Shown: piece by piece, positions 1,596 through 62,025 of the stretch
How the letters are laid out: every line of letters begins with the position of its first letter
Numbering within the stretch: position 1 is the stretch's first letter
Origin: Candidatus Gottesmanbacteria bacterium
GTDB lineage: Bacteria > Patescibacteriota > Microgenomatia > UBA10105 > UBA927
Assembly (NCBI GenBank): GCA_023245355.1
Contig: JAHFKN010000003.1
Span: 57,368 to 121,367 of the forward strand
Length of the DNA: 64,000 nucleotides
Direction: 5' to 3'
Program-made: the position numbers and the translations under genes
Notes under the pieces: generated by a model
The model's input: only the letters and a program-made list of their open reading frames with translations
What the model was told of the DNA's origin: nothing
Databases searched by the model: none

Positions 1596-1985
1596 TTATT
1601 TGCCGCCGATAATCTGCACGGTGTTGCCGTCGGGGTCGGAGAATGTGGCAAACCATTTTTCCATTGTCGGCGCTTTAAACGGCGCGGCGACAAACGGGAC
1701 GTTTTTGCTGACAAGATATGCATGTGCTGCACTGACGGAGTCGACATTTATGTTAAACATGATGCGCACGGGGTCTTTGTTGGTCCCTTGGATTTCCGAA
1801 TGTTGTCCTATCCACAGAAAGGGGAGGCCGTCAGGAAATTCGAATAAAATACCGGTGTCCTGCGGGTGATTGAGATGCTCATTAACCTTTAAATTGAACA
1901 CATCCTGATACCAGTGCGCTAACCGCTCATAATCCGCCGACCAAATGAGAATTGTAGTGATTTTATGAAATGTAATTGCTTCCAT
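1596..1985 (-). CDS. VOC/glyoxalase-bleomycin resistance family protein
   Basis: 129 aa with a typical paired beta-alpha-beta-beta-beta VOC fold pattern (WYQDVFNL, FEFPDG, DPDGNTVQI). Confidence 0.55.
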   Translation of the reverse strand: MEAITFHKITTILIWSADYERLAHWYQDVFNLKVNEHLNHPQDTGILFEFPDGLPFLWIGQHSEIQGTNKDPVRIMFNINVDSVSAAHAYLVSKNVPFVAAPFKAPTMEKWFATFSDPDGNTVQIIGGK

Positions 1986-2905: not shown

Positions 2906-3053
2906 GGCAGGCCTTAGTGGCCAGACTTAGAATAGTTTGGCACAAAGTAAGCTCGTTTGAAATAGATGAAATTGGTCAGTTCCTAAATCCCCAGCCAGCA
3001 ATTTTGTCTATGCTTAGTTAAAAGGATTATAATCAAATTATTATCTAAACTCT

Positions 3054-4151
3054 ATGGAAACTTCAGGTGGAAATGTGGGCAACCCAAAGAAAAATTTCAG
3101 GTTGATAATACAACTCTGGCTTGTATTTGAAGTTAGTGTTTTAGTTTTTCTTACTGATTTTGTCTATGTAATAGCGATAAAGAAAGTCTTGTTTAATGAG
3201 GCTCCAGATGTTTTCGGAATCGTTCTATTAGCATCTATGCTTGTAGGAGGATTATCTTTCTTTTTGGCAATAGTCCTCAGTCTGCTTAGAAAGCACTTTA
3301 GCGATAAGAAAATAACTTTTTCAAAAGTTTTATTGATACTACTGACGTTACCTGTGTTGCCATTTTACTTGTTCGTCTCGCATCTTCTTGATAAAAACAG
3401 AAAGCTTTTTCCAAGACTACTGAGTGGTTCTGTTTTGTTGGTTGTTTTATTTCCCTTTTGGATTTTGGGATATGTAGTTCTGTATTATGTTTCTACGGAT
3501 GAATTGTTTTTGGGTTCAAGATATCAAGTTTCGTCAATTGCATATTCCGATTCCATGATGCCTACCTTCAAACCAGGGTCAATTGGTAAGTATTATCCTT
3601 ACAAAAATATATTTTACAAATTAAATCCTAACTGGGCTTATAAGATTGAACGAGGAGACATTGTAAGGTTCAGTAGTGGGGTGACTCAAGATTATTTGAA
3701 TAAGGAGGGAAATATAGACTACCACAATTTTGTTAAGAGGGTTATTGCAATTGAGGGAGATAAAGTTGAACTCAGAGCAGGAGTGGTAATACTAAACAGT
3801 GAGCCATTATCAGAACCTTACACCCTTGAACCCAATTCAACTTTTGCCCTGGATGACGCATACAAGAATGCAAAATCGCAGGGTTTAAGTGGGCTGTTTT
3901 TGGATGAATGTAAAGCTATTGTAATTCCAGAGGGTAAGCTATTTGTACTAGGTGATAACAGAAAAAATAGCAATGACTCAAGAGTTATTGGTCTAGTTGA
4001 TTTGGCAGACATTAATGGGTACTTTCCGTACAAAGAACAGAAACAACCATTCAAAGAAGGAGTAAATGTTATTAATTACTCTGACCAATGGAGAACCTCA
4101 ACTGACCTAAATTCTTCAATTCTCCAGAAGGTTGAAAATTATTGTTTATAA
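3054..4151 (+). CDS. lepB: Signal peptidase I (S26 family) with a long polytopic N-terminal extension
   Basis: S26 boxes: SMMPTF (Ser box), VKRVIAIEGDKVEL (Lys box), GDNRKNSNDSR (box E). The N-terminal 160 aa have multiple TM helices. The gene is markedly AT-richer than its surroundings. Confidence 0.65.
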   Translation: METSGGNVGNPKKNFRLIIQLWLVFEVSVLVFLTDFVYVIAIKKVLFNEAPDVFGIVLLASMLVGGLSFFLAIVLSLLRKHFSDKKITFSKVLLILLTLPVLPFYLFVSHLLDKNRKLFPRLLSGSVLLVVLFPFWILGYVVLYYVSTDELFLGSRYQVSSIAYSDSMMPTFKPGSIGKYYPYKNIFYKLNPNWAYKIERGDIVRFSSGVTQDYLNKEGNIDYHNFVKRVIAIEGDKVELRAGVVILNSEPLSEPYTLEPNSTFALDDAYKNAKSQGLSGLFLDECKAIVIPEGKLFVLGDNRKNSNDSRVIGLVDLADINGYFPYKEQKQPFKEGVNVINYSDQWRTSTDLNSSILQKVENYCL

Positions 4152-4371
4152 CGAAGAAATACATATATGAAAATGTTACACGCAGGAAATAGAATCATTT
4201 TTAATGTTTTGTAATGAAGATCCGAAGCTGTTTGCCAGTTCGAGACCTGCCTTGCAAAGAGAACTTTTAAGATTTGTTATCTCGAACCTTATTTTGAGGG
4301 ATAAAAAGGTCAAATATACGCTCAAAACTCCATTTGATATAGTAGCCAAATACTCTCAAAGTGAGAATTAG

Positions 4372-4442
4372 CAGGCTCGGAGGGAATCGAACCCCCAATA
4401 GAGGTTTTGGAGACCCCTGGTATACCATTTACCTACGAGCCT
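4372..4442 (-). tRNA. tRNA-Trp (anticodon CCA)
   Basis: Cloverleaf folded by hand: acceptor AGGCTCG/CGAGCCT, D-stem GGTA/TACC, anticodon stem GGGGT/ACCTC with loop CTCCAAA, T-stem GGGGG/CCCTC with loop TTCGATT, discriminator G. No CCA encoded. Confidence 0.8.
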
Positions 4443-4450
4443 ATGATGAT

Positions 4451-4699
4451 CTATTTTATCAGCTTCAGACGTTTAATTAAACCTTGATAGGCGGATCCGT
4501 GTTGTTTCAGCTTGTGCTCCCGTACTGTTGCACTGATTTTATCACGGTATGCTTCGTAATATATGAGTTGGGGATGAATCATTTTTCTTGTTGTAAAGGT
4601 TTTGCCACTAATATGTTCGCGAATTCTACGTTTAAGATCGCTTGAGTATCCAATATATAGTGAGTGATTGTTGTCTTGAAGAAGGTATACGTAATACAT
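4451..4699 (-). CDS. GIY-YIG nuclease superfamily protein (YhbQ/UPF0213-like, 82 aa)
   Basis: MYYVYLL...LYIGYSSDLKRRIREH...YYEAY...REHKLK matches the GIY-YIG core and the YhbQ-like pattern. The ORF is wedged between the tRNA-Trp 5' end and a partial tRNA copy. Confidence 0.75.
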   Translation of the reverse strand: MYYVYLLQDNNHSLYIGYSSDLKRRIREHISGKTFTTRKMIHPQLIYYEAYRDKISATVREHKLKQHGSAYQGLIKRLKLIK

Positions 4700-4700
4700 G

Positions 4701-4751
4701 GGTATACCATTTACCCCGCCTTTCGCGAAAGGCTGGGTTTACCTACGAGCC
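4701..4751 (-). repeat. Partial duplicate of tRNA-Trp 5' end (positions 1-24) interrupted by a 24-nt palindrome flanked by TAAA direct repeats
   Basis: On the minus strand, AGGCTCGTAGGTAAA + CCCAGCCTTTCGCGAAAGGCGGGG + TAAATGGTATACC reproduces GGCTCGTAGGTAAATGGTATACC of the intact tRNA. The insert (plus 4714..4737) is a near-perfect palindrome around TTTCGCGAAA, with TTTA repeated at 4710..4713 and 4738..4741. Confidence 0.7.
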
Positions 4752-4812
4752 TAACTAAAGGGTATTGTAGCAATTTTCGGCCGGGAATGAAATTCCAAAT
4801 CCGAAGGAACGA

Positions 4813-5322
4813 TTACAGAAGTTTGAGCGTGGTAATGAATTGCGTAAATACCGGCCCGAAGCCGCCGATATATACATCAAGGCCTGTTTTGGGATGGGTG
4901 AACATAAGTTTATCGGTCGGGGATCCGTCTTTGGCGGACGTATCGTGATACAGACGGGCTGAGACACTTGCCGTGCCGCTCGCTACAGGAATGTTCATGG
5001 ATTCGATTTTATCCGCCGGTAACGCGATTCCGGGAATATCTTTCTGACAGACGACGATAACGGATCCATCCGGATGGGAAAGATTTGCAAATACCGTGCC
5101 GCTGGTCGAGCTTTCCATCGGGGTTAACGTGTTCGGATATTGAAATGAGACGCCGCATGTAGAACCCACAAGATACGCAAACGTCGGTGACGGCGTGGTA
5201 ATCTGCGTGGGAAGAGCGTTGGTGGACGCTTGCTGCGGGATAGTCCGGCCGAGGTTAAAGCCGATAAGAAGCGCGGCAACAATTGCCAAAAAAGCCGTAA
5301 AGAGCAGAGTGTTTCTGTGCAT
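4813..5322 (-). CDS. Hypothetical secreted/membrane-anchored protein
   Basis: The long ORF 4813..5535 overlaps rpmG. An internal start MHRNTLLFTAFLAIVAALLIGF (signal anchor) at 5322 gives 170 aa. Confidence 0.4.
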   Translation of the reverse strand: MHRNTLLFTAFLAIVAALLIGFNLGRTIPQQASTNALPTQITTPSPTFAYLVGSTCGVSFQYPNTLTPMESSTSGTVFANLSHPDGSVIVVCQKDIPGIALPADKIESMNIPVASGTASVSARLYHDTSAKDGSPTDKLMFTHPKTGLDVYIGGFGPVFTQFITTLKLL

Positions 5323-16481: not shown

Positions 16482-16583
16482 ATAGAATCAGTATAGGAAT
16501 TTTTGTGGGTTATGCAATAGGGGAAGTTACATCCGTTGTACGCTACCCGCCGGATGACTCTCCTGGGAATGTCGGGCGTGTTG

Positions 16584-16668
16584 TGCTGAGGCCAAGATTC
16601 GAACTTGGGTAGGCCTGTCGGCCGGCAGTTTTACAGACTGCTGCGATTGTCCACTCCGCCACCTCAGC
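16584..16668 (-). tRNA. tRNA-Tyr (anticodon GTA), type II long variable arm
   Basis: Acceptor GCTGAGG/CCTCAGC, anticodon stem GCAGT/ACTGC with loop CTGTAAA, long variable arm CGGCCGACAGGCCTA, T-loop TTCGAAT, discriminator A. Confidence 0.85.
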
Positions 16669-16693: not shown

Positions 16694-16724
16694 GCCCCAG
16701 TTGCTTTGAGGGGCCACCTCAGCA
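16694..16724 (-). repeat. 12-nt duplicate of tRNA-Tyr 5' end plus adjacent GC hairpin, upstream of the intact tRNA
   Basis: Plus gccacctcagca at 16713..16724 repeats 16658..16669 (tRNA positions 1-11 plus one upstream nt). The hairpin GCCCC-N11-GGGGC lies at 16694..16714. Confidence 0.5.
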
Positions 16725-61188: not shown

Positions 61189-61393
61189 CAGGGGGCAGCG
61201 CATTGCGCGCCTGCGCATGGCACTTATACGGGGAGGAGCATCCGGAGTACAGATGCCGGAGGTTGACGGATATCCCGTGGCGACTGAACCGTTGCCGGGA
61301 ACCGTACGGACGACGCATGTCGATAGGCACAAACGAAGACAAACGGTTGATGTTTCCCTTGATGAGTAGAGAGAAGATCAGTGGTTCCTATGT

Positions 61394-61555
61394 GAGGCTT
61401 TGGAAGGTTGAGTCCACGAAATCCCGCTATGCGGGAGAATCGAGAATCCCTGGTAGCAATTTGAGCGTTTTATTGAGGCTTTGGAAGGTTGAGTCCACGA
61501 AATCCCGCTATGCGGGAGAATCGAGAATCCCTGGTAGCAATTTGAGCGTTTTATT
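61394..61555. repeat. 81-bp tandem direct repeat x2, tRNA-Cys-3'-end-derived, each with a CCCGCTATGCGGG hairpin
   Basis: Units 61394..61474 and 61475..61555 are identical. The third period (61556) is the tRNA-Cys 3' end itself (gaggctcggaagggaatcgaacc versus gaggctttggaaggttgagtcc). Confidence 0.8.
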
Positions 61556-61556
61556 G

Positions 61557-61628
61557 AGGCTCGGAAGGGAATCGAACCCTTGCATAGAAGTTTTGCAGAC
61601 TCCCGCGTTACCACTTCGCCACCGAGCC
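61557..61628 (-). tRNA. tRNA-Cys (anticodon GCA)
   Basis: Acceptor GGCTCGG/CCGAGCC, 3-bp D-stem, anticodon stem GGAGT/ACTTC with loop CTGCAAA, T-loop TTCGATT, discriminator U. No CCA encoded. Confidence 0.85.
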
Positions 61629-61653
61629 ATGGATATAAACATGAGTCTTTTAG

Positions 61654-61725
61654 TGGGTGCGCATAGAATCGAACTATGGACCTCTTTCTTATCAGGAAAG
61701 CGTTCTACCACTGAACTACGCACCC
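61654..61725 (-). tRNA. tRNA-Ile (anticodon GAT)
   Basis: Acceptor GGGTGCG/CGCACCC, D-loop AGTTCAGTGGTAGAAC, anticodon stem CTTTC/GAAAG with loop CTGATAA, T-loop TTCGATT, discriminator A. Confidence 0.85.
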
Positions 61726-61973
61726 AGTAAACTATTTTGTAATCTTGTTTTTAAGTCTTCTTTTAGCGCATGCATTTTGAGCTTCTTTTCTCTCATCAAT
61801 GCATCTTTTTTGTCTTTATACGCTTCGTAATATACTAAAATCCACGGTCGGTATCCTTTTGTTGATTTCACCTCTCCGTTATTGTGCTGATGTAATCTTG
61901 TACGTAAATCCCCGGTTGATCCTATATATACGTCATTATTAACCTTGCTTTTGAGGACATATACATAGTACAT
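61716..61973 (-). CDS. GIY-YIG nuclease superfamily protein (YhbQ/UPF0213-like, 85 aa)
   Basis: MYYVYVLKS...VYIGSTGDLRTRLHQH...YYEAYKDK...REKKLK. About 50% identical to the GIY-YIG protein at 4451..4699. Its 3' end overlaps the 5' end of tRNA-Ile by about 10 nt. Confidence 0.75.
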   Translation of the reverse strand: MYYVYVLKSKVNNDVYIGSTGDLRTRLHQHNNGEVKSTKGYRPWILVYYEAYKDKKDALMREKKLKMHALKEDLKTRLQNSLLGA

Positions 61974-61980
61974 ACCACTG

Positions 61981-62025
61981 TCAGGCGAAGCCTGATCTGG
62001 CTTTGCCAGAAACTACGCACCCAGT
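61981..62025 (-). repeat. Two tandem 15-nt hairpins plus a 15-nt duplicate of the tRNA-Ile 5' end, upstream of the GIY-YIG gene
   Basis: tcaggc-gaa-gcctga (61981..61995), tctggc-ttt-gccaga (61996..62010), then aactacgcacccagt (62011..62025), identical to 61713..61727 (tRNA positions 1-12 plus 3 nt upstream). Confidence 0.65.

Follow-up and report, generated by a model that had tools for sequence, protein, structure and literature searches.

How can a gene for a very small nuclease settle inside a tRNA gene and leave a complete tRNA behind? This question is raised by a locus in a 64,000-nt stretch of the genome of a Candidatus Gottesmanbacteria bacterium (Patescibacteriota; contig JAHFKN010000003.1, positions 57,368 to 121,367), hereafter the window, where an open reading frame (ORF) for an 82-aa protein of the GIY-YIG nuclease family lies between a truncated copy of tRNA-Trp and an intact tRNA-Trp gene (Table 1). 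The truncated copy is itself interrupted in the D loop by a 24-nt palindrome, called PAL in the following. We hold with moderate confidence that the locus is a selfish element made of the 82-aa nuclease gene and its cognate PAL, which inserted recently into tRNA-Trp under the guidance of hairpins. Other loci used for comparison are designated by L followed by a number.

Filled and empty alleles of a tRNA-Trp gene

The initial annotation of this locus had described a copy of the first 24 nucleotides of tRNA-Trp carrying the palindrome and a TAAA repeat, followed by the ORF and the complete tRNA. This layout holds base for base, with the refinement that the repeat begins 1 nt before tRNA position 1 (3 nt in the similar arrangement found at tRNA-Ile). 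The 24-nt 5' duplicate had not been mis-transcribed, as the 15-mer formed by its first part occurs exactly twice in the window; shuffled sequences give an expectation of 0.00, and a chance repeat was thus rejected. As that annotation had anticipated, a covariance-model scan with Rfam recognised only the downstream tRNA-Trp, the upstream partial copy giving no tRNA call even at E ≤ 1, and ARAGORN likewise called the downstream copy only. An assembly artefact was also rejected: an independent Logan assembly of the same strain contains the identical 471 nt with zero mismatches, so the locus is not an artefact of one assembler. A tRNA intron was rejected as well, since the PAL-bearing copy ends at position 24 without any 3' half and no Rfam intron family was found. 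Look-ups of the exact protein returned matches from the same strain only, or none.

Table 1. Features of the tRNA-Trp locus, of other tRNA genes in the window and of related loci (coordinates are those of the window unless a locus is named).
Feature	Position	Strand	Remark
Likely tRNA promoter, extended -10 box TGCTACAAT	4764..4772	-	11-nt leader before the partial tRNA-Trp copy
Partial tRNA-Trp copy, part 1, positions 1-15, AGGCTCGTAGGTAAA	4738..4752	-	exact 15-mer repeat
PAL, 24-nt palindrome/hairpin CCCAGCCTTTCGCGAAAGGCGGGG, in D loop	4714..4737	.	one A/G mismatch
TAAA, repeats tRNA-Trp positions 12-15, flanks PAL like a target-site duplication	4710..4713	-	
Partial tRNA-Trp copy, part 2, positions 16-24, TGGTATACC	4701..4709	-	
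Single base C between partial tRNA-Trp copy and ORF	4700	-	
82-aa single-domain GIY-YIG nuclease gene	4451..4699	-	Pfam GIY-YIG E 5.9e-13
8-nt spacer ATCATCAT, ORF stop codon to tRNA-Trp	4443..4450	-	
Intact tRNA-Trp(CCA); first 24 nt are the second repeat copy	4371..4442	-	ARAGORN; Rfam 62.2 bits
ORF-less scar: tRNA-Tyr positions 1-11 (16723-16713), then hairpin CCCTCAAAGCAACTGGGG	16695..16723	-	
81-nt unit, 2.2 copies, starting at the last bases/3' end of tRNA-Cys	61393..61568	-	
Intact tRNA-Ile(GAT)	61653..61725	-	ARAGORN
Second GIY-YIG gene, 85 aa, 45% identical to the 82-aa protein	61716..61973	-	stop codon inside tRNA-Ile
Partial tRNA-Ile copy: positions 1-12, hairpins TCTGGCAAAGCCAGA and TCAGGCTTCGCCTGA (15 nt each), positions 13-20	61973..62022	-	
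Linker CCGCCTGCCATAGCGC	L090 ~4834-4849; L091 ~3155-3170; L092 ~1765-1780		

A search of metagenomes with the 169-aa gene directly upstream yielded 11 related loci. The closest of them, L082 (neighbour protein 96% identical; DNA 92.6% identical over the upstream 569 nt), shares its intergenic region and the TGCTACAAT box with the window, and its tRNA-Trp is identical over the full 72 nt, but PAL and the ORF are both missing. With the same promoter and an identical tRNA, L082 represents the empty site. Its comparison with the window resolves two insertions. The first, of 28 nt, corresponds to PAL plus TAAA, lies in the D loop and has a 4-nt flanking repeat. The second, of 282 nt, follows position 24, consists of the C, the ORF, ATCATCAT and tRNA positions 1-24, and is flanked by a 24-25 nt repeat of resident sequence. 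This filled/empty polymorphism, which came from the empty-site comparison first proposed with the annotation and made here for the tRNA-Trp locus, supports the claim that an insertion took place in the tRNA gene near position 24 and that the full tRNA was regenerated downstream. The TAAA repeat, already regarded as a 4-nt target-site-like duplication, is confirmed and is absent in L082. The further proposal that the element had carried its own replacement 5' half fared less well in the window, where both repeat copies correspond to the resident allele of the empty site, so that the data agree equally with duplication of the target and with a donor origin; at L003, L016 and L091/L092, however, foreign tRNA sequence has evidently been imported.

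A recent gain of the ORF seems more likely than its loss in L082. No GIY-YIG homologue was found in any of the 11 relatives that share the 169-aa neighbour gene, four of them (L082, L083, L086 and L088) have a clean tRNA-Trp, and both GIY-YIG ORFs of the window are 12-14 points poorer in G+C than their surroundings (36.9% for the 82-aa ORF and 35.3% for the 85-aa ORF at tRNA-Ile, compared with 49.2% for the window). A loss in L082 through recombination within positions 1-15 is formally possible.

Other relatives carry remnants in the same place. L084 has a decayed one, without ORF, in which a near-identical PAL occupies the same D-loop site (TTAAA/PAL/TAAACGG) together with two more hairpins, followed by a tRNA-Trp of a different allele. 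In L089-L092, a promoter-proximal remnant of tRNA-Trp, interrupted in L089 and L090 by a hairpin insert, precedes a complete tRNA-Trp of a different allele; in L091 and L092, the remnant corresponds to the allele that L083, L086 and L088 have in intact form. The truncated remnant and the new tRNA-Trp are joined in L090-L092 by the same 16-nt linker CCGCCTGCCATAGCGC, without any ORF, and this linker may be what is left of a hairpin arm (CCCGCCTGC...). Such remnants, and the arrays that relatives have at this locus, point to repeated events.

The promoter helps to tell which of the two tRNA-Trp copies came first. We identified TGCTACAAT as the likely promoter by comparison with the clean tRNA-Thr genes of the window, which have TGGTACAAT 12 nt and TGGTAAAAT 9 nt upstream in the same layout, and the box is conserved in L082; a scan for consensus promoters made no call at the partial tRNA-Trp copy because it requires a -35 box. 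Boxes of this TGnTAnAAT type precede the partial copies of tRNA-Trp, tRNA-Ile and tRNA-Tyr, not the intact tRNAs, which indicates that the promoter-proximal fragment is the original 5' end of the resident gene. To judge from this arrangement, the ORF is probably co-transcribed with the rebuilt tRNA, which RNase P would then release.

An attachment site for an integrative element that later lost its integrase would also produce a direct tRNA repeat flanking foreign DNA, and a second low-G+C insertion, of 1.46 kb, does abut the 3' end of tRNA-Trp. Integrase islands resemble our locus in using a tRNA gene as insertion site and in restoring that gene with a direct tRNA repeat. However, their tyrosine integrase duplicates the 3' end of the tRNA, whereas here the repeat covers the 5' end, and the insert between the repeats measures 258 nt and is filled by the GIY-YIG ORF. 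Neither integrase nor transposase nor recombinase occurs among the neighbouring genes, within several kb of the tRNA-Trp locus, as far as the absence of an integrase is concerned in agreement with the annotation, and the same architecture is found in dozens of genomes without integrases. We rejected an integrase island for its lack of a recombinase and the wrong tRNA end duplicated, and an ancestral integrase that was subsequently lost appears hardly credible.

The 1.46-kb block (35% G+C vs 49%; window 2906-4370) starts directly at the tRNA-Trp 3' end, contains an ORF for a 365-aa S26 signal-peptidase-like protein on the plus strand (3054-4151) and has GCCTGC at both ends. It is missing in L082, where a small membrane-protein gene follows 5 nt after the tRNA. 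Together with the ORF insert, it means that tRNA-Trp has foreign DNA on both sides.

The nuclease, its hairpin and its homologues

The 82-aa protein consists of the catalytic domain alone, which bears out its initial description as a YhbQ-like, GIY-YIG-only protein devoid of a DNA-binding domain. The Pfam GIY-YIG match covers residues 1-70 and the protein ends 12 residues later. The AF2 model (pLDDT 90.8) is one compact beta-beta-alpha-beta-alpha-alpha domain, and neither this model nor the Pfam match contains a linker-joined DNA-binding domain. The GIY-YIG catalytic core with its conserved Tyr, Arg and Glu is present, Y5, Y15, G17, R25, H29, E49, R60 and E61 being invariant in an alignment of 35 sequences. 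Both sequence and fold place the protein in the UPF0213/YhbQ-Slx1-like branch: profile comparison with the PDB retrieved BH0048 (E 2.1e-11) and EF2693 (E 6.1e-8), which belong to UPF0213, and SLX1 (E 3e-3), while Foldseek retrieved 1zg2 (E 4.3e-5) and Slx1 (TM 0.65-0.71); the catalytic domains of I-TevI and UvrC come next among the solved matches. NCBIfam models gave sub-threshold hits only.

PAL is formed by two abutting 12-nt arms flanked by TAAA, that is, an inverted repeat with a short repeat resembling a target-site duplication, and lies 15 nt upstream of the ATG of the ORF. Its association with GIY-YIG genes is close: in 434 kb of related loci, 45 of 46 PAL copies are at most 300 nt from a GIY-YIG ORF, a zone that makes up 17% of the sequence. 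The family has the consensus CCCCGCCnTTCGCGAAnGGCGGGG. Among 35 distinct PALs, six of the ten stem pairs change on both sides and 95.7% of the cells are paired, a pattern that collapses in slid controls. These compensatory changes indicate that the two arms are kept complementary, which fits a hairpin acting in single-stranded nucleic acid or the copying of one arm from the other. PALs occupy the D loop, the anticodon loop or a bridge from the anticodon to the T loop with loss of the intervening DNA, and their flanking repeats of 3-5 nt are made of local sequence (TAAA, TTTA, TCA and TGAA in four D loops; TCCA and GTCTC in anticodon loops). Read from the sequences, this looks like a fresh insertion in each lineage, although gene conversion that homogenises two tRNA copies could mimic such local repeats.

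Distant homologues present a different arrangement, in which the ORF is found between inverted arms whose outer ends resemble the halves of PAL. Such arm-ORF-arm forms occur in L021, L074, L066 and L078, with arms ACCCCGCCCTT...ORF...AAGGGCGGGGT in L021 and CCCTCACCTATGAAAC...ORF...GTTTCATAGGTGAGGG in L066, where the element follows tRNA-Arg position 12-13 and positions 1-12 are repeated. PAL is best interpreted as such an element without its ORF, the two arms being directly joined.

Could PAL nevertheless be an independent miniature element, or a structural signal in RNA (a terminator, or a 5' hairpin that stabilises the mRNA), with no functional tie to the nuclease? Its own TAAA repeat, its occurrence without ORF in L084 and in copies downstream of tRNAs, and its folding as a 10-pair hairpin, which would be stable near the 5' end of the presumed ORF transcript, all agree with this idea. 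However, besides the location of 45 of the 46 copies beside GIY-YIG ORFs and the one copy in the window, the hairpin type co-varies with the protein clade, the ORFs of distant homologues sit between PAL-like arms, and PAL has no T tract and was not called as a terminator-like site. An independent PAL thus seems very improbable. The initial view of the palindrome as a separate miniature insertion remains correct in that PAL had an insertion event of its own, not in that it would be unrelated to the ORF, since its proximity and covariation reveal a conserved partner motif of the nuclease lineage. Unlike a classical miniature transposon with terminal inverted repeats, PAL has neither many dispersed copies nor a transposase of a known class: there is one PAL in the 64 kb, and the GIY-YIG domain is the only associated protein.

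By scanning one genome per species with a narrow alignment, we obtained 80 homologue loci, mostly from Patescibacteria; the hosts of the nearest homologues suggest that the bacterium of the window is probably a member of this group close to Microgenomates. In 41 of these 80 loci, the start of a tRNA falls at -18 to +16 nt relative to the ORF stop. Most of these tRNAs are tRNA-Trp, which accompanies the closest homologues; the remainder are Arg(CCT), Arg(GCG), Cys, Ala or Gly. Upstream of the ORF, 31 of 38 testable loci have a partial copy of the same tRNA, so the possibility considered at the outset, that homologues might never be adjacent to tRNAs nor flanked by tRNA fragments, can be dismissed. 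The partial copies end mostly near positions 38-47 and less often at 11-24 or 59-74, and the spacers between ORF and tRNA are 0-16 nt long, A/T-rich and not conserved, unless the ORF ends inside the tRNA. In ~11 loci, a PAL-bearing 3' fragment or a near-complete dead copy also follows the intact tRNA; PAL is then present on both sides of the ORF-tRNA unit and the array takes the form dead copy - ORF - tRNA - dead copy. L005 and L044 have tandem ORFs. The partial and intact alleles differ at many loci, among them L003, L016, L018, L044 and L089-L092, which implies that foreign tRNA sequence was imported there. The window and its closest homologue, L001, both have PAL in the D loop and the ORF after the D arm, and their tRNA alleles differ.

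Targets are not limited to tRNA genes. Arm-ORF-arm forms occur inside the 23S rRNA genes of L056 (two copies), L067 and L078. The first of these belongs to a cultured bacterium, Deferribacter thermophilus (NZ_JAPNXM010000024.1; ORFs 2384-2608 and 2963-3217, with inverted arms of 15-19 nt). The rRNA flanks of L078 are mutually complementary, which would place the insert at the tip of a stem-loop of the 23S rRNA, presumably near helix 25, a classical intervening-sequence site. ORFs also abut the 5' end of RNase P RNA genes in L046 (3001-3703), L057 (3001-3718) and, by sequence only, L073. In these cases the right inverted arm runs directly into the conserved GGAGGAAAGTCC and Rfam aligns the RNA from the ORF end onward; by eye, the ORF may lie in the loop of a hairpin before GGAGGAAAGTCC, probably P3. 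At the tRNA-Ala of L041 (2955-3010, 3255-3275), the GGTGAG that precedes the partial tRNA copy equals the inner end of the right arm; the repeat unit thus comprises tRNA positions 1-11 preceded by GGTGAG, a hint that the left flank derives from a donor array and not from the target. Relatives of the element, as recognised by their sequences, thus occur at genes for tRNA, rRNA and RNase P RNA in many uncultured bacteria.

In a rough neighbour-joining tree, the proteins group by target, with a large Trp clade in which Arg(CCT) and Cys are nested and a separate Cys/Ile clade; the ORFs associated with RNase P RNA and 23S rRNA are partly grouped, and the grouping follows hairpin type too. The tree bears on the idea of a vertically inherited, domesticated host gene, for instance an Ssn-like regulator of DNA uptake or recombination (see below), the tRNA fragments and hairpins being left behind by local recombination between hairpin repeats and L082 having lost the gene via the 15-nt repeats. 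Such a gene would explain why the position upstream of tRNA-Trp is common to many lineages of Patescibacteria, why the tree partly follows the hosts and why the catalytic residues are conserved; SsnA does have a host-level role in Neisseria, and a clean tRNA would result if recombination took place within positions 1-15. Contrary evidence comes from the base composition of both copies, 12-14 G+C points below that of the host, the lack of the gene in all 11 relatives sharing the neighbour gene, with four clean sites, the related ORFs found at different tRNAs, in 23S rRNA genes and beside RNase P RNA, and the existence of tandem copies, serial remnants and two clades in one genome. We consequently hold domestication to be improbable.

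Repeats of the type GGGTTTACCCGCACAC... flank the members of one further clade (L047, L053, L059, L069, L079 and L080; ~3001-3450 in each). The right-hand repeat of L080 runs into the frame GFTFIETLVA, a type IV pilin-like N-terminal motif, and this clade may therefore insert at conserved sequence coding for the pilin leader.

Possible routes of insertion and relation to known systems

Among described systems, the nearest is the Ssn family, whose members are single-domain GIY-YIG nucleases that cut single-stranded DNA beside cognate hairpins flanking their gene (Chenal et al. 2025, PMC11893778). As in Ssn, the proteins studied here are the catalytic domain alone and single-domain proteins of <150 aa (82-85 aa, compared with 94 aa in Neisseria). 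They also share with Ssn a cognate hairpin inverted repeat beside the gene, often on both sides as in an insertion sequence, and hairpin and protein co-vary between lineages, as found for PAL. Even the outer arms look similar (TTCCCGC...GCGGGAA in the NTS hairpin, TCCCGCC...GGCGGGA in PAL). The match is good by function and anatomy. There are, however, several differences: PAL has one copy per 64 kb whereas Ssn hairpins number hundreds per genome, PAL is found within the loops of copied tRNA genes, a tRNA promoter and a regenerated tRNA enclose the nuclease gene, and the best solved relatives are UPF0213 and Slx1. When plasmids and phages were searched with tblastn, the GIY-YIG matches were all weak (33-44% identity, E 5e-5 to 8e-4) and none linked the protein to bona fide Ssn genes.

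The selfish element that we favour as explanation takes up what is observed directly, namely the insertion polymorphism, the repeats, the association of tRNA, ORF and hairpin, and the foreign base composition. The nuclease gene and PAL would travel together as one unit. From the kinship with Slx1 and UPF0213 and the precedent of Ssn, we infer an active nuclease that recognises folded hairpin DNA; its substrates would be its own PAL as well as stem-loops in genes for structured RNAs, and it would break such DNA, after which host repair would insert or copy the element. Repetition of the first 24-25 nt of tRNA-Trp beyond the ORF would rebuild the complete tRNA, and the ORF, now between the tRNA promoter and the tRNA, would share a transcript from which RNase P frees the tRNA.

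Two routes of repair can be envisaged. The first (i) would be homology-directed copying from a donor array, the tRNA sequence on either side of the ORF serving as homology arms: upon a break in the tRNA gene, the left end would pair with the partial copy of the donor and the right end with its intact copy. This route would explain the foreign alleles of L003, L016, L018, L044 and L089-L092, as well as the inheritance of PAL position and ORF junction with the protein clade, as in the window and L001. The second (ii) would be a transposition-like insertion at nicks staggered by 12-43 nt, which would duplicate the target; selection would leave as survivors only those events whose repeat starts at or just before position 1. 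It would explain why both copies in the window are the resident allele and why the repeats flanking PAL are local. The data decide for neither, and we slightly favour route (i) for the spread between genomes.

Part of this evidence could equally be claimed for a classical free-standing homing endonuclease, which would make a double-strand break in the empty tRNA gene and have the 5' half supplied by the donor, PAL marking or destroying the cleavage site in the leftover copy. Presence/absence polymorphism at a conserved site is indeed expected of GIY-YIG homing enzymes of the I-TevI and Seg types, and the foreign tRNA alleles at L003, L016, L018, L044 and L089-L092 and the inheritance of PAL position and partial-copy end point with the protein clade (window and L001) are in line with homing. 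A precedent at tRNA genes, SegB of phage T4, is a larger, multi-domain protein that reportedly cuts within the tRNA gene region of related phages. It is a GIY-YIG homing enzyme whose gene lies in a tRNA gene cluster (PMC2330249), and neither duplicated tRNA fragments nor a hairpin partner are reported for it. In contrast to what homing would lead us to expect, the copies of the window are identical to the resident allele, with no donor polymorphism, the 82-aa protein has no separate DNA-binding domain like that of homing GIY-YIG enzymes, an intact target persists in the filled allele, and the PAL repeats are local in four D-loop alleles, which suggests that PAL was newly inserted and not inherited through a donor. 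Classical homing is, on balance, unlikely.

Several observations also weigh against the hairpin-guided selfish element itself. The single PAL copy in the 64 kb of the window shows no burst of copies there. The published SRM pattern for Ssn hairpins (HGTCWYN(0-2)YYVSBRHN(0-5)WNVSBRGN(0-2)RNCYNB), which does match a canonical NTS, had 0 hits in the window and lay near only 1 of 91 homologous ORFs, and membership of the cd10448 family is unproven. Inheritance may have been vertical to a large extent, given a protein tree in rough agreement with the host groups. Since both copies in the window are the resident allele, route (i) needs a near-identical donor or a later gene conversion. The intact tRNA keeps every candidate target site, and a nuclease directed at the tRNA would endanger its own host's copy. 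Finally, nuclease activity, specificity, co-transcription and the repair route are all matters that we infer.

GIY-YIG ORFs have also been described in non-intron insertions in the rRNA genes of bacteria of the Candidate Phyla Radiation (CPR); the insertions that bear them show no resemblance to introns of group I or group II (Tsurumaki et al. 2024, PMC11270868). As seen above, 23S rRNA genes also contain homologues of the window protein (L056, L067 and L078), flanked there by inverted arms; the CPR study gave no mechanism and did not cover tRNA genes. A tRNA tolerates neither an excised nor a retained insert, which would account for a duplicated and regenerated gene, unlike in rRNA insertions.

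Other systems show more partial resemblances. In the mitochondrial atp6 gene of Allomyces, a mobile GIY-YIG ORF is said (by Paquin et al. in 1994) to bring along a replacement gene end, the original end being displaced as a pseudogene. Both there and here an essential gene receives the insertion, function is kept by duplication of a part and the displaced part decays, but atp6 is a protein-coding gene of a eukaryotic organelle, its 3' end is the one replaced and the replacement is clearly derived from a donor. The REP/RAYT and IS200/IS605 systems likewise combine a small nuclease with short palindromic hairpins, ORF-less hairpin copies and folded single-stranded DNA as likely substrate. They nevertheless rely on an HUH fold with a covalent intermediate, where GIY-YIG can perform hydrolysis only, and have neither tRNA-loop targeting nor long target repeats.

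In a literature search, which was not exhaustive, we did not find descriptions of tRNA-linked GIY-YIG arrays, regenerating 5' duplications, hairpins in tRNA loops or serial replacement of tRNA-Trp. The suggestion that the mechanism of mobility and targeting was possibly undescribed can accordingly be narrowed: pairs of GIY-YIG nuclease and hairpin (PMC11893778) and GIY-YIG ORFs in rRNA insertions (PMC11270868) are known, and it is tRNA targeting with a regenerating duplication that we did not find described. We conclude that the element is real, its mechanics being reconstructed, that nuclease-hairpin selfish modules are known and that the targeting of tRNA with a regenerating duplication appears to be new. 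A bolder proposal, which we make only tentatively, is that a hydrolytic nuclease of 82 residues, unaided by an integrase, a transposase or a DNA-binding domain, drives an unrecognised form of mobility, in which structured-RNA genes would be read in their folded single-stranded state, as hairpins or cloverleaf, breaks would fall in loops or at stem ends, duplications of 12-43 nt would start from position 1 and rebuild the essential gene, and tRNA-Trp genes would, as a side effect, be serially replaced and exchanged across Patescibacteria.

If the element is what we propose, a gene for a minimal nuclease is able to establish itself in an RNA gene that is essential and probably present as a single copy. 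The host would survive because just enough of the RNA gene is duplicated to rebuild it, while the element borrows that gene's promoter. Ssn-type pairs, non-intron rRNA insertions and otherwise unexplained tRNA fragments may then belong to one family living in the loops of structured-RNA genes, and horizontal tRNA gene replacement would appear as a regular process in Patescibacteria. The proteins would be compact, possibly structure-guided single-strand nucleases with distinct specificities, and the homologue of cultured Deferribacter thermophilus (L056) would offer a tractable system for this family of elements.

Fragments at other tRNA genes of the window

Fragments accompany four of the six tRNA genes of the window (Trp, Ile, Tyr and Cys), the two tRNA-Thr genes being clean. 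The architecture of the tRNA-Trp locus was said to recur at tRNA-Ile and to have left a scar at tRNA-Tyr, and we found both. At tRNA-Ile, the 85-aa GIY-YIG ORF, the partial tRNA copy in two pieces (positions 1-12 and 13-20) and the hairpins are all present, with the promoter-like TGGTACAAT upstream of the partial copy; as a refinement, the ATG of the ORF overlaps the last base of that copy. The 15-nt hairpins of this type are also found in the Cys/Ile protein clade (L036 and L061).

The tRNA-Tyr scar, with positions 1-11 repeated, a hairpin and no ORF, lies 45 nt upstream of the intact tRNA-Tyr (16583-16668). Its CCCTCA... is similar to CCCTCACC, the left arm of those arm-ORF-arm elements that follow tRNA positions 11-13 in L041 and L066. 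At tRNA-Cys, each 81-nt unit looks, by eye, like the T arm plus the 3' acceptor strand of the tRNA with the hairpin TCCCGCATAGCGGGA in the T loop, and may be the 3'-side counterpart of the 5' fragments found at the other genes.

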